Below are positions 10,129 to 18,571 of a stretch of DNA of 64,000 nucleotides, one piece after another. How positions within the stretch are numbered: the first letter of the stretch is position 1; every line of letters begins with the position of its first letter. Both the position numbers and the translations under genes were made by a program. The notes below the pieces were generated by a model that was given only the letters and a program-made list of their open reading frames with translations, was not told the origin of the DNA and made no database searches. Origin of the DNA: an uncultured Acidobacteriota bacterium (lineage in GTDB: Bacteria > Acidobacteriota > Blastocatellia > RBC074); NCBI GenBank assembly GCA_963796275.1, contig CAWCKY010000001.1:1260662-1324661 (forward strand). The letters run 5' to 3'.

Positions 10129-11250
10129 TCATGGCCTTGAGCGGCCGAACATACGGCACACTAGCTCGGTACCTATGGCGCTGGTCATGAGGCGTTCTTT
10201 GCTGTCACCGAGTAATCGTTGCGTCCAGTTGACGAAACCGCCGTCAGCGAGCGCAAACTGCTCGCCGCGATCGTTCTTCGCTTTTATGTGAAAACAAGGG
10301 CCTTCGTAATATCCGAGTCCGGTCAGACGATATAGATTGAAACTCAAGCGGACTCCTTCGCGCTCCTCGCGCAATGGAGCGCATACATATTGTTCGAGCA
10401 AACCCATCTGTACTAGTAAATGCTTGGGTAAATCGAATTGCGCCAGATTCTCACTGGGCACAGCGAATGATCTGGGCCATGCGCTCGAGAGCTTCTCGAT
10501 CAAGCGCTCCGAACTTGTATAGTCGCTCGCGCGCACGAATGTTCTTATTTCATCTCTGCTAATCCCGAACACAGAGCAGAGATGCGCGACTACGCGCGTG
10601 TCGGAAAGTTCGACCTCAATATCTTCGAACCCGAAGTCCATTGCCGACAACTTTTTCAAAAGTGTCAGGTAATATCCGATATGGTCTCCAAGGGCGGCCG
10701 TCTCAAATGAAAAAGATCCCGTGTCGCGCGCCGCGCTCACCAAGCTGAATAGCTTGAAATGGGCGGTAAAACCCGCCGTCTTTGGCGCCGGAAATCTGAC
10801 CACTCGCTGGCTGGCGCATAGTCGGGTAGTCTCTTTTCTGCTCTTGATATCTTTGCGGCGGCGAACGCACTCAAGCGCTAATCCAACGGTCGGATCAGCG
10901 GCGCATTCATATGCCCTGATCGAGCTTAAGACATTTCCTTGATCCAGCCCAGTGAGTGTCGCGATCGCCCCCAGCGGAGTCAGGGGTGACAACTCCATCG
11001 CTTCGAATTGCGGCGCAACACTATAACTAACATGTTCCACTTCGTTCAGTAGCCGTCCGTCTAATCCACAGGGTTGAGTAACCATGTGGGAACGCGTCAG
11101 GTGAGATGATTCGATCTTACCGACTCGCCTCTTTAAAACTGTAAGCAGTAAAGAATGAAGCTCCGCCCCCGAGAGTTTTTCTGAAAGAAGGTCGACCAGA
11201 TCGTCTACTCCCAAGTCTCTGATAATTCGCTGCGCTATCTGTTCGCTCAT
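10129..11250 (-). CDS. Uncharacterised class II aminoacyl-tRNA-synthetase-like (HisRS/HisZ-like catalytic fold) protein
   Basis: 373-aa ORF with motif-2-like CASQRVVR...HFKLF, HisRS-like RLTGLGYYEGPCF, LADGG and motif-3-like SAIGTELV; no anticodon-binding domain seen. Confidence 0.6.
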   Translation of the reverse strand: MSEQIAQRIIRDLGVDDLVDLLSEKLSGAELHSLLLTVLKRRVGKIESSHLTRSHMVTQPCGLDGRLLNEVEHVSYSVAPQFEAMELSPLTPLGAIATLTGLDQGNVLSSIRAYECAADPTVGLALECVRRRKDIKSRKETTRLCASQRVVRFPAPKTAGFTAHFKLFSLVSAARDTGSFSFETAALGDHIGYYLTLLKKLSAMDFGFEDIEVELSDTRVVAHLCSVFGISRDEIRTFVRASDYTSSERLIEKLSSAWPRSFAVPSENLAQFDLPKHLLVQMGLLEQYVCAPLREEREGVRLSFNLYRLTGLGYYEGPCFHIKAKNDRGEQFALADGGFVNWTQRLLGDSKERLMTSAIGTELVCRMFGRSRP

Positions 11251-11431
11251 GATTTCAAGTCTATCTCTGTTAAAAAAATGATGTAAGCGGTATGGATTGA
11301 ATGTTGGCCTTCAACGGATTTGTTTGACAAATTGGTCACGTCTGCTCTGCTCAAAAGTTTCACGATTCACTCCTGAGAAAGGTGCGCAAAAATCGATTCG
11401 CAATTGAACGCGTGAGTGAATCGTGTGTAAA

Positions 11432-11545
11432 TGAAAATAGCCACCGATGAGGTGGCTGTAACACTTTGTGTTTTTTAGGTGGGCCAGGACGGAATCGAAC
11501 CGCCGGCGCACGGATTTTCAGTCGTGTGGTCAATCAGCGAACTGA
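11432..11545 (-). repeat. Direct repeat copy 1: tRNA-Phe(GAA) 3' half plus downstream hairpin (att-like)
   Basis: The reverse complement of 11478-11523 is GACTGAAAATCCGTGCGCCGGCGGTTCGATTCCGTCCTGGCCCACC (anticodon loop GAA, T-arm GGTTCGATTCC, acceptor 3' strand). The adjacent hairpin is AGCCACC-gatga-GGTGGCT. The tRNA 5' half is absent. Confidence 0.8.
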
Positions 11546-11627
11546 ATTGAAAATAAAAGAGAGCCCTGGGTACACAGCAAAGTAGACGAATGTCTGAAAA
11601 GCCCCTACCTGTCTGATCCGTTTAGAA

Positions 11628-11659
11628 CCCCACTATAACGCGTTAGCGTCATAGTGGGG
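11628..11659 (-). terminator. Stem-loop downstream of the RiPP precursor
   Basis: CCCCACTATAACGC-GTTA-GCGTCATAGTGGGG, ~50 nt after the precursor stop. Confidence 0.55.
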
Positions 11660-11712
11660 AGGAGTAACTTCCTGCGCTACCTTCCTTCAACTGGATAACC
11701 AGTTGAAGGATG

Positions 11713-11883
11713 TTAAGCTTCCTCGTCTTCGTAGATTGCGAACGGCTGCCAATAGTATCCGGGAGAGGCGGCAAATTCTCGCGGGCCTCGCGGCGCGTTT
11801 TCTTGAATCAATTCGCTGGCAGAACCAAGTTCGACGATATCTATTTCCAGAGGTTCTGTACTATTTTGTTCTTGAGGTTCCAT
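11713..11883 (-). CDS. Lasso-type RiPP precursor peptide, 56 aa (not in the ORF track)
   Basis: AAAGGAGAATAGT-ATG RBS; MEPQEQNSTEPLEIDIVELGSASELIQENAPRGPREFAASPGYYWQPFAIYEDEEA*. Leader-like IVELGxASELI, same strand and immediately downstream of the cyclase. Confidence 0.85.
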   Translation of the reverse strand: MEPQEQNSTEPLEIDIVELGSASELIQENAPRGPREFAASPGYYWQPFAIYEDEEA

Positions 11884-12020
11884 ACTATTCTCCTTTCTGT
11901 TATTTGTAGCATCACCTGAGTGGCGCGATGCGTGATTTAAACTCCGAGGGGGTAATTCGTCAACCTCCGTAGAAGTTTGTTAGTGAAACAATGGCGAAAT
12001 CTAGTCGGGATCGGAACATC

Positions 12021-13916
12021 TCATGCTCCCTCAAATTGAGTCGAAGGCGCGTTGCTTCTTCCGGCGTAGTGATGTTCTATTGAGCGCAACCAAATCTCCA
12101 AAGATACAACATTGGAAAAAGCATCCAGCTCGAGCTCTATGCCATGCCGAGCCTTATCAAGCGCCGACATCATCTCTTTATAATCAACATACCCGCGTCT
12201 GACTACGCGCGCATCATCGAGCATCGATTTAATTGCGACCCATTCCTGCGCCAGACCGCGACAGAGTGTTTCGCTGACCGATCCTTTGCCTTTTCGCCGG
12301 AGGATTGTATCGGGCAGGATATCTTTTAGGGCTCTGCGCATTAAAGGTCTAGTCTCGATCGGTTGGAGTTTCTGCTCGAGGGGAATGGCCATCACGAATT
12401 CCACCAGCGGGCGATGCAGAAATGGAAAAGTCTTGACGTAGCTGTGCGGATCACGATGCCCCCACGTGAGAGCAGAAATCGCATACATTAGTGATGAAGC
12501 TTGTGCCTGCTGGCTCGGCAAGCGATAACCGAACGGATCAGCGGGCAGGAGTAAGCGCGCAATAAAATCGGTCCTTTTGGCGAAATCTCGATTTACCCAG
12601 GCGGGAATCCGAAATTGATTCTGCAATCTTGCCTTGATCGAGGTGGACAGAAATGGGACCACGCCTTCCTGCCATAAGAGATCCCAATAAGTTTTGCGCA
12701 AAATTTGACTCCACTCCTGTAGTCGTCTATGCAGTCTAAGGGGTTTTATTCGATATATTAGTATCCCTATCTGTGCTGCGGGCGCGGGCGCGCTCCATAA
12801 CAACTGGTCCCCGCCGAGCCCGCTCAAAAGGATGCGCGCCCCTTCCGCATTCATCGCACGCCCCACATGCGCCTGCGCTCCGTAAGTGCACAAACTTGCG
12901 CTCGGCCTCTCTATGAATTCGTCTTTCGGAGACGCTAAATGAATCCAATGTCCCCGTCGCAAGAAGTGATACCCGGTTTCGCCACGCTTCTTCTCAACCG
13001 CCTCAATAAAACGGCGATCATAAGAGGTCTCTCCGTCATCCAGATAAGAGATCGTTTTTAAATGCATTGCCTGACGGCTTTCTTCCGCCAGGATCCTGTC
13101 TGCCATGCAAACTATGGACGACGAATCCAATCCACCGCTTAATTCCGCCCATACGGGCCCATCCGCTCGCAAGCGACATCGCACTGCCTCCCGAAACAAT
13201 TGGCGGAAGTGGTCCGCATATTCCTCATCTCGTTGATAACGTATCTCTTTTTCCGTATCAGGCCGCCAGAATCTATGAGTTCGCACCTGGCCCTTATGAA
13301 CAGACACGACAAAACCCGGTTCCACCGAAAAAACCTTGCGATATGGCGTGCGATATAATTCTGGAAATATTGCCAAATAGCCTGCGACAAACTCATCGTC
13401 AACCTCCAACTCGATGCCGGATGACTTGATCAATGCCTCAAGCGTCGACGACCAAATAAGCCCGCTATTGTCGGCGTGATAGTAGAGCGGACGGACGCCG
13501 AATGGGTCGCGTGCTAATAGCAGCGTTTTCGTTGCGTTCGTCCATAAAGCTAGCGCGAAATCGCCGATTATCTGCTGCAAGAAAGTTTTATCCCATTTGA
13601 GATAAGAGGACATCACCAGCGCAACATCAGTGGTGTCTCCGTTCAAGCCGTGGGGGAAATATCTTAGCAGGTCGTCACGATTGTCCAGACGACCATCCCA
13701 TACGAGGATATCCCCCTGCGGTGAAACTAACGGCTGAATTTCGAGTCGCGATTCTAGATCGGTAGGAAAAGCGCGAAAACAAAGACCGACGGAATCCTGT
13801 ATCACTTGGCGCCCACCATCCGGCCCTCGTGGAATCAAGTCGCCGCTTAATCTAACCAGGGTACTTGTATTAATTGGCCCGTCGTTGAAGTTGATCAGCC
13901 CGCCGATTCCGCTCAT
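12021..13916 (-). CDS. Lasso peptide cyclase (asparagine synthetase-like C protein)
   Basis: MSGIGG (AsnB catalytic Cys replaced by Ser), WDGRLDNR, LARDPFGVRPLYY, PP-loop ELSGGLDSS, SGLGGD, PFLHRPLVEF; adjacent to the B protein. Alternative start at 13976. Confidence 0.92.
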   Translation of the reverse strand: MSGIGGLINFNDGPINTSTLVRLSGDLIPRGPDGGRQVIQDSVGLCFRAFPTDLESRLEIQPLVSPQGDILVWDGRLDNRDDLLRYFPHGLNGDTTDVALVMSSYLKWDKTFLQQIIGDFALALWTNATKTLLLARDPFGVRPLYYHADNSGLIWSSTLEALIKSSGIELEVDDEFVAGYLAIFPELYRTPYRKVFSVEPGFVVSVHKGQVRTHRFWRPDTEKEIRYQRDEEYADHFRQLFREAVRCRLRADGPVWAELSGGLDSSSIVCMADRILAEESRQAMHLKTISYLDDGETSYDRRFIEAVEKKRGETGYHFLRRGHWIHLASPKDEFIERPSASLCTYGAQAHVGRAMNAEGARILLSGLGGDQLLWSAPAPAAQIGILIYRIKPLRLHRRLQEWSQILRKTYWDLLWQEGVVPFLSTSIKARLQNQFRIPAWVNRDFAKRTDFIARLLLPADPFGYRLPSQQAQASSLMYAISALTWGHRDPHSYVKTFPFLHRPLVEFVMAIPLEQKLQPIETRPLMRRALKDILPDTILRRKGKGSVSETLCRGLAQEWVAIKSMLDDARVVRRGYVDYKEMMSALDKARHGIELELDAFSNVVSLEIWLRSIEHHYAGRSNAPSTQFEGA

Positions 13917-13975
13917 AAAGTACCTTAGCAGTGGAGAAAAAATCTGTCTTGATATCAGCCGATAAACCGGACTCA

Positions 13976-14737
13976 TCAGGAACGGCTTAGGGCGTGAAAG
14001 AACGTCTGTACTTTCGGGTGATCGTTGACCACCTCTCCTTGAACTTCGACCCAGGCATGTCCATAAAAGGGCATTTTATGAATGCCAATGACCATTTCAG
14101 CAGGCGCGCCAATGCTTCGCAGCAGACAAGTGGTCGCCGCTGAACGTTGCAGACAGAGAGATTTTTTAGAGTACCAGGTGCAGGCGCGGACCAGTCTCGA
14201 GCAGATATATGCAATCATCTCAGAATCTGGAGCCCCGCCGTTAATCGGCCAACCGGACACGATGCGCCGAAGTGCGTTAATGCCGATCAGTTTGAGCACC
14301 GCATCCACTATCAAGAGTGCGACCAGAGCAGCAGGAATGTGAAGTTTCAGCTTTAAAAGTATCTCAATCAGGAAGCGCAATCCGTTCACTACACGTTGAG
14401 TCACTATCCCGCCGAGCCATTGGACGTCGACACTCGCTGATATCGCAGAAGATTGCAGGAGCCCTTTCTCAGTCAACTTATTGATAAGTTCGTCAACGAT
14501 CGACCCAATACGTGACGGCACAGAGGCATTGATCTCCGTACTTGCAGCGCTAACGAGCTCTGCACGCGACAGACCGGAGTCGCTTGTTGCGATCTTGTGC
14601 AGAATTAACGCACCCGTTTTGTTGATGCTCAGGACCTTATCTTGTCCGAAGTCGAGTAGTATGCACCCGTCCTCAGTGACTGGTGAGACATAGACATTCG
14701 GAGCTAACCGAATCTTCGTGAGGGGTGAAGGTGTCAT
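13976..14737 (-). CDS. Lasso peptide B protein: fused PqqD/RRE (B1) and transglutaminase-like leader peptidase (B2)
   Basis: N-terminal DGCILLDFGQDKVLSINKTGALI...LTEKGLL (RRE); C-terminal CLQRSAA, GHAWVE, VVND triad. Confidence 0.93.
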   Translation of the reverse strand: MTPSPLTKIRLAPNVYVSPVTEDGCILLDFGQDKVLSINKTGALILHKIATSDSGLSRAELVSAASTEINASVPSRIGSIVDELINKLTEKGLLQSSAISASVDVQWLGGIVTQRVVNGLRFLIEILLKLKLHIPAALVALLIVDAVLKLIGINALRRIVSGWPINGGAPDSEMIAYICSRLVRACTWYSKKSLCLQRSAATTCLLRSIGAPAEMVIGIHKMPFYGHAWVEVQGEVVNDHPKVQTFFHALSRS

Positions 14738-14862
14738 ACGTACAAGGTAATTCGGATAGATTTCGCTCGATCAATAGAATTAACCATCAGGCTACACATT
14801 AAAGAAGATATATAGCTGTAATGCAACAGAGCCGGAGGTGAATGTATAGGTATGTAAAGTTG

Positions 14863-14978
14863 AATGAAAACGGCCACCCTTTGGCGGCCGTAAACTGTTT
14901 ATTCTATTGATGGCCAGGGGACGGTATCGAACCGTCGACATACGGAGTTTAAGCCGGGTGGCCAAACAGTGAACAGAA
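14863..14978 (-). repeat. Direct repeat copy 2: degenerate tRNA-Phe 3' half plus hairpin
   Basis: ATGAAAACGGCCACC...GGCGGCCGTAA...GATGGCCAGGGGACGGTATCGAACCGTCGACATACGGAGTTTAAGCC...GTGGCCAAACAGTGAACAGAA aligns with copy 1 (ATGAAAATAGCCACC...GGTGGCTGTAA...GGCCAGGACGGAATCGAACCGCCGGCGCACGGATTTTCAGTC...GTGGTCAATCAGCGAACTGAA). Confidence 0.78.
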
Positions 14979-15009
14979 AGTGGGATACCACAAACTATCA
15001 CCAATGCCA

Positions 15010-16321
15010 TCATTTATCGTGGTCATCTTTCCCGTTATAGCCGTCATTGTCGAGAGGCCGCAGGAAGTTCTTGAAGGCCCAGCTGGCCACCTGTCTTCCC
15101 TGCTTTCGCGCCGCTTCGTCCGCGAAGCGGAAGTGGATGCCCTCGTAGATACGGGCGTCGACCACTTCCTCCGCTGCATCGGAGAAGCGTCTATAAGTGC
15201 GCGTGTCCTGAATGGTCGGCCCCAGGTTGGTGGTCGTCACTGAGAAGGTCATGTCGGTCCGTCCCGAAGAAGAGCGTGAGGTGAATTGACCAGCGGCGCT
15301 GGTAACGTTGTTTGCGCCCGAGGTGTAGTCAGGATAGGGCGGGGTGGCGATGAGCGGCAGCCAGGTTGAGTCGCCGGCCGTCCGCGAGTTGCCGTCGTTG
15401 TTACCCTCTTGAATGGCGGTGACTGGCCGCCAGAAAACATAGTAGTTCTTACTGTTCCAGGAAGTGATTTGTGCATCGGCCATCGCCATGTCAGCCAGGG
15501 CAAAGAGCCGGGCACTTCTGGCAATGTCGTCGACTTGCGTGCCGGCGATGTCCCTGAGCACCTGGTTCCAGACCACAACGTAGTTACCGGCCCAGAAATG
15601 GGCCAGGTCGGTCTGCTCGGGGGTGCGTGAGCTGTTGTTAAGGGCCCCCAGCGCTTTAACCTCGTTATAGTCCCTGGCGTACTCGCGGCTCGTCAAAGCG
15701 GGCGGCGGCGCGGCGCGGAATTGTGAAGGTCTGGTTAAGTGTGAAGGGGGTGACGTTGCCCAGCCACGGCGCGAGCATCGGCAACAAGGCCGGTGGCGTC
15801 GGGCGCCAGACGCCGGGATCGGTGCCGCCGATGAAGGGCGGCGGCGGCGGAACAGGGAAACTCCCGTCACATGCCCGCAGGGCGATGATCCCGGCGGCGG
15901 CTATTGCTCCCACCTCTACCCCGGGATCGTTCGCGGCAAGACCATGGTCGGACAGATATTGTTGGTAGGTCGTGTCGAGGGACTCGGCCTGAGCTGGAAA
16001 GCGGTTGACGAGCACATCGTGCGCGGCTTTGGCGGCAGCCGCCACCGGGGAGCCGGAGGCTCCCTTGATCTCCACGTAATATGGTTCGTACCGCTTCTCG
16101 ATGGCCTGGACGGCGTCGTAAACGGCGGCCTGGACCATCGCAATGTCGAGGACGCCGGTCGGGCCTGGACGTGCGGCTGTCACGGTCGCTTGCACGGCGA
16201 TCGCATTCCAATCGGCTACAGCATCGGCGCTGACGCTGGCGGGAGTTGCAAGCAAGATGACGAAGATGGCGATCCTCCGCCAGGTCTGAAGTTTCAGTAT
16301 ATTTGTAGTTGTGTATTTCAT
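15010..16321 (-). CDS. Secreted vanadium haloperoxidase/PAP2-superfamily protein (frameshift near 15735)
   Basis: AGGAGG RBS, signal peptide, ADWNAIA; KNYYVFWRP, PPYPDYTSGA, RIYEGIHFR. Two ORF-track frames join at FTL/TRPSQFR. Confidence 0.85.
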
Positions 16322-16626
16322 TGGAAGCCTCCTTTTAACAACATTTTTAAAACATTTAACAGATTGAGCGGACAGAACATGCAGTATGGTCAATCGTTTT
16401 GTACCAAACCCACCAGGCCAACGAGACTATCCAACCTCTTGGACAGTAAGAGGCGAGGCATGGGCCAAATTGCTCTGGCCACCGACTTACACTAAAATGA
16501 TCTGTTCATGTCGCCATTGCTCATCGGCCTATTTCACTGTGTACACTAATCTCAAGGCGGCGAGGAAATCCTTCCAGAGTGGCGAAAAATTTCGGAAAAA
16601 GATGAGAAAAAGTTCGGTAAGCCATT

Positions 16627-18571
16627 ATGAATCACTCGGCCAAGCACTTTTACGAATTCGGCCCGTTCCGGCTGGATATCGGCGAGCGCCTCTTGCTCCG
16701 CGATGGAGAAGAAGTCTCGCTCACACCCAAAATTTTTGACCTCCTCCTAGTACTGGTCGAAAACAGCGGACACATTCTTGAGAAAGACGCGTTAATGAAA
16801 GCTATCTGGCCTGATGTCGTAGTAGAGGAGACGAACCTGACGCGCAACGTCTCCACGCTAAGGAAAGCCCTGAGCGAAAGCTCGGACGCGCGTCCATACA
16901 TCGAGACAATTCCCTGGCGCGGGTACCGCTTTGTCGCAAGCGTAAAGGACGTAACTAATTACAACACAGAGATGGCAATTGCAACGCCGTCCTCGCCGCC
17001 GATTCTGAGCGAAACGGAGGAGCGAGGCTCGCGAGGTGGAGAAATCTCTCCCGCAGGCCCCGCGTCAAGTACCGGGACTCTAGTTACCTTGATCAGGCGG
17101 CGTAAGGTCGCTGCCGGCGCCATCGCCCTGGCGCTCCTGGGTGTCGGCAGCTGGGCGCTCTCTCTGAGCATCGAGACCCACACGCCGATTGAATCGCTGG
17201 CTGTCTTGCCATTCAGCAGTGGTAGCGCTGATCCGCAGGCGGTATACCTGAGCGATGGAATCACTGAGAGCCTCATCAATAATCTGTCGCAGCTGCCAAA
17301 TCTGCGTGTGATCGCGCGAACCACCGCTTTCCGCTACAAGGGCCAAACGTCGGACCCCTCCAAAATAGGACGCGAACTTAATGTCAAAGCAGCGCTCACT
17401 GGGAAAGTTCTCCTGCATGGCGACACTCTGATCGTCCAGGTAGACCTGGTGAACGTGGCGGATGGCGCGCAACTCTGGGGTCAACAGTACTCACGGAAAC
17501 TTTCGGATATTTTCGCGCTTCAGGGAGAGATCGCGACGGATATCGCCGAGGAGTTGCAAGCGAAACTGACGGGCGAAGAGAAGAAGCTATTGGCTAAACG
17601 TTATACCAATAATACCGACGCATATCAGCTCTATTTGAAGGGCCGCTATTTCTGGGATAAGAGGACGGAGGATGGGTTCAAGAGAGCCATTGATTATTTC
17701 CGACAGGCGACTCAGAAAGATCCACAATATGCACTGGCACACACAGGTTTGGCAGACTCTTACATAGGGCTGACATTCTATAACTATCTTCCTCCCAAAG
17801 AGGCGATGCCGCAGGCGAAGGCATCAGCGCTGGAGGCGCAGAAGTACGATGACATGCTTGCTGAAGCGCACGTATCGCTGGCGCATGTCAAAGTGAATTA
17901 TGAGTGGGACTGGGCGGGTGCTGAGAGCGAATTCAAGCGCGCCATCGTGCTCAACCCGCGATACCCAACAGCGCACCAGTGGTATGCTATTCATTATTTA
18001 ACTCCGCAGGGGCAGCTGGAAGAGGCTCTTGCCGAAATGAGCCACGCCAGGGATACTCGATCCGCTCTCGCTCGTCATGAACACCTTTCTGGGTGCAACC
18101 CTTTATTACGCTGGTAAGTACGATCAGGCGATCGGGCAATTTGTTAAAACGCTTGAACTGAATCCCGACTTCGGTGTAGCGCACTGGCACCTGGGGCTTG
18201 CTCTTGTGCAGGAGGCGCGATTCGAGGAAGCAATCGCCGAGCTAAACAAGGCCGTCACTCTTTCGGGGGGCAGCCCGCTCATGAAGGCGGCGCTCGGGCA
18301 TGCCTATGCGGCTTCGGGTAGAAGAAGCGAGGCAATGAATATCCTCACTGAATTACAGAAGTCGGCGGAACGAAGCTACATCTCAGCGAGCGAAATCGCG
18401 GCGATTTATGCGGGCCTGGGCGAGCGGGATCGCGCGCTGGACTGGCTTGAGAAAGCTGCGGAAGAGCGCGCATTCCACCTGGTCTACCTCAAAGTGAGGC
18501 CGGAGTTCGCCCCACTGCGCTCCACCCCTCGGTTTGAAGAATTGTTTAGGCGCATCGGTCTCGCACCATGA
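16627..18571 (+). CDS. OmpR-type winged-helix + TM + TolB-N + TPR regulator (frameshift near 18050)
   Basis: FYEFGPFRLD...IETIPWRGYRF; SLAVLPF; YLSDGITESLINNLSQL; TPR repeats continue in ORF 18077-18571. Confidence 0.9.

Follow-up and report, generated by a model that had tools for sequence, protein, structure and literature searches.

A compact cassette in a soil acidobacterium very probably encodes a lasso peptide precursor with isoleucine at the penultimate leader position

Introduction

We analysed a 64-kb window (the whole stretch of 64,000 nucleotides, from contig CAWCKY010000001.1 of an uncultured Acidobacteriota bacterium of the class Blastocatellia), in which a small open reading frame (ORF), A, lies behind two lasso-type biosynthetic genes, B and C. 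The locus raises the question of whether the 56-amino-acid (aa) product of A is the peptide on which B and C act and, if so, where its leader would be removed and which ring would be closed. The best explanation of our results is that B, C and A of this soil acidobacterium are a self-contained cassette of three genes for a lasso peptide, and we hold with high confidence that A encodes the precursor processed by the adjacent B/C pair. The family is an uncharacterised member of the known lasso class and no new kind of system. Coordinates are positions in the window, and residue numbers of A follow the 56-aa ORF.

Results

B and C are lasso-type processing enzymes

Three consecutive ORFs on the minus strand, in the order B, C, A, make up a cassette of about 3.1 kb, with the following parts.

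13976..14737, minus strand: B, 253 aa, a fused RiPP recognition element (RRE; RiPP, a peptide made by the ribosome and modified after translation) and Cys peptidase
12021..13976, minus strand: C, 651 aa, asparagine-synthetase-like lasso cyclase
11713..11883, minus strand: A, small precursor ORF, 56 aa
11890..11895, minus strand: ribosome-binding site (RBS) of A, AAGGAG, 7 nucleotides (nt) 5' of the ATG
11803..11883, minus strand: predicted leader of A, residues 1-27, ending ...VELGSASELIQ, from conservation, the ratio of non-synonymous to synonymous polymorphism (pN/pS), alignment and the complex model
11716..11802, minus strand: predicted core of A, residues 28-56, 29 aa, its boundary placed by Gly(-8) anchoring, MAFFT and the complex model
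11684..11709, minus strand: 12-bp stem-loop after the stop of A, from folding (z -4.43)

Pfam placed a PqqD-like RRE (PF05402, E 2.5e-6) at residues 25-94 of B, corresponding to 14456..14665, and a transglutaminase-like peptidase domain (PF13471, E 2.6e-19) at residues ~132-249, corresponding to 13991..14344. B also scored above the cut-off of the NCBIfam family lasso_biosyn_B2 (NF033537; 72.9 bits vs 33). C195, H227 and D239 were invariant across 54 homologues, and we infer Cys195/His227/Asp239 to be the putative catalytic triad. Both domains reside in a single 253-aa protein, not split into B1 and B2 as in bsf-type clusters. A PDB sequence search with B gave no match at E≤0.01.

C matched Asn_synthase (PF00733, E 3.4e-35) and GATase_7 in Pfam, and its best NCBIfam model was the 'lasso peptide isopeptide bond-forming cyclase' NF033535 (E 2.8e-103, 346.7 bits); in a PDB sequence search, the matches of C were limited to asparagine-synthetase-type enzymes. 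The N-terminal Cys is the nucleophile in class II amidotransferases. The conserved body of C begins at Met21 (13916) and reads MSGIGG, not MCG, as it does in two related loci (L001 and L074), indicating that the glutaminase Cys is replaced by Ser. The ATG of C at 13976 overlaps the stop of B (ATGA); since the alignment with relatives of C does not begin before residue 19-21, translation could start at either Met.

The small ORF is a conserved gene with the pattern of a precursor

No Pfam or NCBIfam family recognized A, so that annotation by homology alone would miss it. Searching 5.8 billion proteins with a word index yielded 22 homologues (E 1.4e-28 to 1.1e-6), and an exhaustive hidden Markov model (HMM) search of 1.84 billion representatives added one further homologue, P0024, giving a peptide family of 24 sequences: that of the window and 23 relatives from uncultured soil Acidobacteriota. 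The HMM search of representatives gave eight hits, four of them long repeat proteins (P0023 and P0025-P0027); P0026 and P0027 were inspected and set aside as unrelated. V17-A22, E24-Q27, E36 and I50 of A are the same in every row of the 24-row alignment, and S23 in 23 rows. One metagenomic relative, P0022, departs from the frame beyond residue 38 and runs on in the family's -1 frame, a sign of either a sequencing error or a decayed copy.

Besides the window, six contigs carry A about 90 nt downstream of C: L001, a metagenome-assembled genome (MAG) of a Blastocatellia bacterium, and the metagenome loci L049-L053. Their C proteins are 76-85% identical to that of the window over the part held by each contig. 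Including the window, C is followed by A in 7/7 loci, each with a purine-rich RBS before A, and B is followed by C in the 5/5 loci whose contig reaches that far. L001 and L050 encode an identical peptide and are probably one population, not independent. With L050 omitted as the duplicate, pN/pS over 15 pairs of six sequences was 0.15 in the leader as a whole, falling to 0.02 in its residues 13-27, and was 0.70 in residues 28-56; purifying selection on the leader is strong. As judged from these sequences, a constrained leader followed by a variable core is the pattern expected of a RiPP precursor. Because of its conservation across homologues and loci, A is not a chance ORF.

The stem-loop 3' of A starts 4 nt after the stop and folds with -26.4 kcal/mol; none of 200 shuffles was as stable. 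Since it has no T-run, it is not a classical intrinsic terminator, and it is likely a transcript-end or stabilising structure. When the relatives were read by eye, an inverted repeat of different sequence was found at the same place.

The source genome (9.46 Mb in 7 contigs, 94.7% complete) holds one copy of A, one B2 gene and one lasso-type C, and no other C-like gene in it is more than 31% identical. A profile built from 14 precursors of several clades found no second precursor in this genome at E≤1 and detected this locus only. Among 401 sampled genomes of the class (tallies that include the unpublished genomes G199, G373 and G296, from which no sequence was used), homologues of B at E≤1e-15 were present in 16, and the peptide profile was significant in two (5.5e-38 and 7.8e-39). 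The second of these, G264, matches at contig coordinates identical to those of L001 and is probably the MAG in question. The other matches of the class-wide peptide search, in which 167 of the 401 genomes reached E≤1, were discarded as noise, the next best E being 0.006.

The sequence-only reading of this stretch had quoted exactly this 56-aa sequence as a hidden precursor, with a strong RBS and a downstream hairpin, behind a lasso-type pair whose AsnB-like cyclase had lost Cys2 to Ser. These proposals held up: the pair through the Pfam and NCBIfam matches of B and C, the substitution through the MSGIGG at residue 21, the RBS and hairpin through the AAGGAG and the 12-bp stem-loop, and the precursor through its place beside B/C in every locus, its constrained leader and variable core, and the complex model described below. 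An equivalent ORF was found at every orthologous B/C pair that could be read, and no canonical precursor for this pair was found elsewhere in the available sequence of the genome, with its single B2 gene.

B is predicted to bind the leader and to reach the leader end

We predicted the complex of B with the precursor, each entered as a purpose-made alignment, together with three controls. The ipSAE was 0.72 for B and the precursor vs 0.01 for the best of the three controls; of complexes with solved structures, 58 of 80 reach that mark, as do 2 of 110 mismatched pairs. Runs agreed in at least 63% of contacts, with a partner pLDDT of at least 51. In the model, the leader runs with its residues 10-23 along the RRE strand of B (26-42), and Leu-Ile-Gln-Glu (residues 25-28) contacts B at 194-196 and 224-228, including Cys195 and His227. 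Taken together, the PF05402 match and the model, whose score is a predicted confidence and no measurement, point to a leader-binding RRE in B.

Comparison outside the family favours a cut after Gln27

Lasso cores carry Asp or Glu at position 7-9, and in A the invariant Glu36 (24/24) would be position 9, 8 or 7 depending on the cut. Three candidate cuts would give a legal ring to Glu36: after Gln27 (Glu1-Glu9), after Glu28 (Asn1-Glu8) and after Asn29 (Ala1-Glu7). In the 24 rows, position 28 is E in 21, D in one, S in one and A in one; position 29 is N in 20, D in two, T in one and G in one (L001); and at position 30, 22 rows have A and two have S. It is the comparison with precursors outside the family that decides among the three cuts at the level of sequence, and not conservation within it.

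The precursors compared include those of L003, L004 and L007, which have the textbook YxxPxL, Gly(-8) and Thr(-2), with ...GSVAKLTQ followed by G....D8; that of Acidicapsa dinghuensis (L006), with ...KSIQ followed by GG; and, from other members of the class, that of L081, with ...ELGxAEE(I/V)VL followed by G and YxxPx(V/I) at the canonical distance, and those of L077-L079, in which ...VELGxAExxIE precedes L, I or F. When 14 such peptides were aligned with MAFFT, unsupervised, I26-Q27 of A fell on the T/I/V(-2) and -1 columns and Glu28 on the Gly1 column, so that ELIQ+E aligns with KLTQ+G (L003, L004), KSIQ+G (L006) and IVL+G (L080, L081). If the canonical relatives are anchored on Gly(-8), their +1 residue is G or S, and +8/+9 carries D or E. 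In the units of sister clades (L074 and P0116), L, V or E comes after ...ELIQ, and Glu stands at +9; L074 represents the closest sister clade, its C and B being 50% and 40% identical to those of the window, respectively.

A cut after Gln27 would give Gly(-8), Leu(-3), Ile(-2), Gln(-1) and Glu1. In this numbering neither YxxP nor YxxPxL is present in the leader, -17/-14/-12 being Pro/Ile/Ile where others have Tyr/Pro/Leu, and the usual Thr(-2) is absent: Ile occupies this place in 24/24 aligned sequences, with Val in P0024. Ile(-2) does not bar membership of the lasso class, since this exception to Thr(-2) is documented (PMC10368454). Both absences had been noticed in the sequence-only reading and are confirmed by the alignment, and its preferred cleavage after LIQ with a Glu1-Glu9 ring agrees with the Gly(-8) anchoring, the MAFFT alignment and the complex model. 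On this evidence, we regard a cut after Leu-Ile-Gln, with a ring from Glu1 to Glu9 (Glu36), as the probable course of processing.

In the mechanism that we propose, leader residues ~10-23 would form a strand paired to the RRE of B, and the peptidase domain (Cys195/His227/Asp239) would cut after Ile26-Gln27. C would then adenylate the side chain of Glu36, and the freed alpha-amine of Glu28 (Glu1) would attack it, closing a 9-residue ring round a 20-residue tail. Bulky Tyr, Trp and Phe residues would serve as plugs, and the acidic end (of the I-Y/F-E-D-E-K-D type) would lie outside the ring. The predicted core of 29 aa has two Arg in the ring, an aromatic-rich loop and an acidic end, and the expected product is a 29-aa peptide with the linear mass minus 18 Da, or 3341.505 (monoisotopic). 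The corresponding computed masses are 3212.463 for Asn1-Glu8 and 3098.420 for Ala1-Glu7.

Alternative cuts, the acidic tail and points against the proposed product

The same lasso chemistry could follow a cut after Glu28, which would give an Asn1-Glu8 ring with Gln(-2) and Glu(-1). Eight-residue lasso rings are common, position 29 is mostly N (20/24), and the Gly found there in L001 would be classical as a first residue. A lasso peptide with Asn1, metanodin, has also been made (PMC12670498). Against this, the register would be off by one from that of every alignable relative, in which Gly(-8) and T/I/V(-2) are kept, -1 would be a variable place (E, D, S, A), and -3 would be taken by the invariant Ile. 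We consider this cut unlikely.

A cut after Asn29, giving Ala1-Glu7 and a seven-residue ring, would begin the core at a position where A (22 of 24) and S (two of 24) are both classical first residues, and seven-residue rings exist in the xanthomonins. However, -2 would then be the variable position 28 and the register would be two off from the relatives; the model also names no confident active-site contact beyond residue 28, bearing in mind that an unnamed residue is no proof of non-contact. This cut appears very unlikely.

The acidic end of A is conserved, with I50, Y/F51 and E52 followed mostly by D-E-K-D, and the possibility had been raised that it acts as a follower or as an alternative acceptor. 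In that case C would join the new N-terminus to one of the C-terminal acidic residues, or the tail would be removed, yielding a large non-lasso macrolactam or a shorter lasso. An acidic C-terminal ending recurs in the precursors of 9 of the 12 relatives outside the family that were compared (YVEFDE, IDEDVE and VDEDIQ in other clades), and in sister clades the next leader follows the core in the same ORF, so C-terminal trimming may exist in the lineage. However, we know of no such product of a lasso cyclase, the cassette holds no extra protease or enzyme, and in the tail D53 and E54 are variable (G, A, D). At ring distance, Glu36 alone among the acidic residues is invariant. We found no evidence for the proposed role of the tail and consider this outcome highly improbable.

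The view that A is not a substrate of B and C, but arose by chance or codes for some unrelated small protein while the true precursor lies elsewhere, could appeal to its lack of recognition by Pfam and NCBIfam, but its place beside C in all seven loci, its precursor-like selection, the resemblance of its leader to canonical lasso leaders, the lack of any other precursor-like sequence in the genome at E≤1 and the passing complex model leave this the least probable of the readings, and close to refuted.

Several points weigh against the product that we propose, from Glu1-Glu9 closure by B and C. Topology, ring size and cut site are all inferred. Within the family, conservation cannot fix the boundary, because positions 29 and 30 are about as conserved as 28, and Ala or Ser at position 30 is a more classical first residue than Glu28. 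C scores below the strict cut-off of 525 bits of NF033535, despite which it qualifies as an asparagine-synthetase-like ATP-dependent macrolactam synthetase. No immunity gene or exporter was found adjacent in the scanned flanks of the window, L001, L049, L050 and L053. The complex model was built from purpose-made alignments, and likeness to solved RRE-leader complexes of other lasso systems may explain part of its pass; countering this last concern, no PDB chain matches B by sequence.

Relatives of the cassette include tandem precursors

More distant Acidobacteriota clusters also have the precursor downstream of C, and the C-then-A order is the local norm in this phylum. In sister clades outside the window, some precursors hold several leader and core units in one frame: three in L074 (4237-4617, plus strand; 120-nt period, 3.0 copies, 82% matches), two in P0116, and two of another type in L075 (1177-1467, minus strand), which belongs to the same genus as the source genome. 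Each tandem unit of the three keeps the I/V(-2) leader end. We found no report of natural multi-unit lasso precursors in a non-exhaustive search of the literature. If real, precursors of this kind would mean that B and C process their substrate iteratively, something not yet described to our knowledge, and they may be a more original lead than the cassette itself.

A broader reading would place the window peptide in a superfamily of Ile/Val(-2) lasso peptides that spans the lineage of Blastocatellia-like Acidobacteriota and does not depend on a kinase, in which tandem precursors are possible, the acidic-aromatic C-terminus is a functional module and the cyclase is adapted to an acidic first residue. 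Rather than an inert tail, the acidic-aromatic end could then be what remains of the inter-unit junction, or its counterpart, guiding C-terminal processing, cyclase docking or, in a cassette that lacks an exporter, export. We put this forward as a doubtful, tentative proposal.

Two other arrangements were observed among the relatives. L076-L079, of one genus, have two C paralogues around one B (C-B-C or B-C-C), with one to three separate small precursor genes after the B/C genes, ending ...PYVEFDE. In Acidicapsa dinghuensis, a 677-aa ORF (L006:2600-4633, plus strand) lies directly upstream of the lasso B and resembles by eye prolyl-oligopeptidase-type enzymes, the fold of lasso isopeptidases.

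Only B, C and A travel together, and in the window two tRNA-like repeats flank them

In L001 and L049 the order is HisG/HisZ, DNA methylase, B-C-A, GHMP kinase and ThiF, L053 has a different downstream side, and the context in the window is wholly different; because the flanks differ between loci, only B, C and A travel together. No kinase, exporter or isopeptidase adjoins the cassette in the window (Pfam scan and flank scan), in keeping with what had been noted from the sequence about the last two, and neither an exporter nor an isopeptidase was found in the scanned flanks of L001, L049, L050 and L053. The only kinase near the cassettes of relatives is the convergent GHMP kinase by A in L001 and L049, which is absent from the window and L053. 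An HPr-kinase-like kinase of the sort found in phosphorylated bsf- and paeninodin-like clusters is likewise absent in and next to the cassette of the window.

The cassette is bracketed by the following elements.

11477..11523, minus strand: tRNA-Phe(GAA) 3'-like fragment, 91% identity over 42 nt to a true tRNA-Phe
11439..11457: terminator-like hairpin after the downstream tRNA-like fragment
14913..14975, minus strand: second tRNA-3'-like fragment, from pairwise alignment with the first and a shared T-arm motif
14870..14891: terminator-like hairpin after the upstream tRNA-like fragment

The two related fragments, on the same strand, bracket exactly B, C and A. The genuine tRNA-Phe(GAA) matched by the downstream one lies elsewhere in the genome. 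Across the window there are exactly two copies of the T-arm motif common to both fragments, against 0 expected by chance: one at 11488 and the other, 3.4 kb away on that strand, at 14920. No copy was found in the loci of the relatives. ARAGORN found no intact tRNA in the window, so these elements are fragments and not genes. An RNaseP_arch match over the upstream fragment, in an Rfam scan of 11000-15500, was dismissed as chance level (E 0.67, 13.8 bits vs a gathering score of 84). From their sequence and placement, the repeats look like the scar of a site-specific insertion at a tRNA-type attachment site. No integrase was seen near the cassette, and a comparison for an empty site in same-genus genomes gave only an 80-residue fragment match in G258. 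A third tRNA-3'-like fragment lies at G000:C4:1611387-1611433.

Among the neighbouring genes, a 373-aa protein (10129..11250, minus strand) gave no more than a faint, sub-cut-off match of the class-II aminoacyl-tRNA-synthetase/HisZ type (PF13393, E 5e-5) and grouped in the atlas with Acidobacteriota hypothetical proteins. Its identity with the HisZ neighbour of the relatives was rejected (BLASTP E 0.54); the gene does not travel with the cassette. At 15010-16393 (minus strand) lie overlapping ORFs of 286 aa and 242 aa in different frames, with no Pfam match, and at 16627-18571 (plus strand) a 496-aa winged helix-turn-helix and tetratricopeptide repeat (TPR) regulator is followed by an overlapping 164-aa TPR ORF in a different frame. 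Each pair could be one gene split by a frameshift or an assembly error.

Discussion

A close comparison within the phylum is with the canonical Acidobacteriota clusters (L003, L004, L006, L007 and L008), which share with the window a precursor downstream of C and a leader end of the form G-S-x-x-x-L-T/I-Q, their C being 27-31% identical. They differ in having YxxPxL, mostly Thr(-2), Gly or Ser as the first core residue, and cores of 15-27 aa. As in fused-B proteobacterial systems such as microcin J25 and capistruin, a single B combines leader recognition with peptidase activity and the leader is without YxxPxL; unlike the window cassette, those clusters have the order A-C-B-D, an ABC exporter, Thr(-2) and Gly1.

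Two features that had seemed unusual each have published precedent. Ile(-2) was validated for BsfA, from the bsf cluster that Bradymonas sediminis carries (Duan et al. 2023, PMC10368454), and that paper also describes Ile/Val(-2) precursors in Acidobacteriaceae and Sphingomonadales and cites earlier bioinformatic sightings; as stated there, all Ile/Val(-2) clusters found in the study encode a kinase or phosphotransferase. The window cassette resembles bsf in its Ile (Val in P0024) at the penultimate leader place, its lasso B/C system and the occurrence of the trait in Acidobacteriota. It differs in that bsf-type clusters have split B1/B2, YxxPxL (at -17 to -12), Gly1 and a kinase, whereas here B is fused, the motif and the kinase are absent and Glu1 is predicted.

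For the first core residue, the precedent is palassoptide A2, from an ancient oral Actinomyces (2026), whose Glu1-Glu8 ring was established by nuclear magnetic resonance in a report (PMC13632552) that also cites a large-scale survey that met every residue but Pro at core position 1. The likeness is in Glu as the ring-forming first residue, predicted here; palassoptide A2 has an 8-residue ring, is actinobacterial and is much shorter, as against the predicted 9-residue ring, 29-aa core and acidic tail of the window peptide. Together with the C-then-A order being a local norm, these precedents indicate that the novelty implied by the sequence-only reading was overstated. Judged by title and abstract, none of the papers returned by a literature search on lasso peptides in Blastocatellia deals with this family, which the supplementary lists of PMC10368454 (Fig. 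S14) and of the position-1 survey may contain.

Metanodin (2025), the first Asn1 lasso peptide, came from a soil metagenome, and its precursor was found only by manual curation of a small ORF (PMC12670498). It resembles the window peptide as a soil-metagenome product with a non-classical first residue, and differs in its Thr(-2), its gammaproteobacterial origin and its unrelated core. That A was missed by family models fits this experience of manual curation (PMC12670498).

The compact three-gene cassette of about 3.1 kb is a target for heterologous expression, which would test how far the rules for leader position -2 and core position 1 relax. Compared with the known systems, it is distinctive in its lack of a kinase, its fused B, its leader without YxxPxL, its 29-aa core with a conserved acidic tail and its flanking tRNA-Phe-like repeats. 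The family joins features that each have only a single precedent: a kinase-less Ile/Val(-2) leader, a predicted acidic first ring residue, a fused B acting on a leader without YxxPxL, and an unusually long core with a conserved acidic end.

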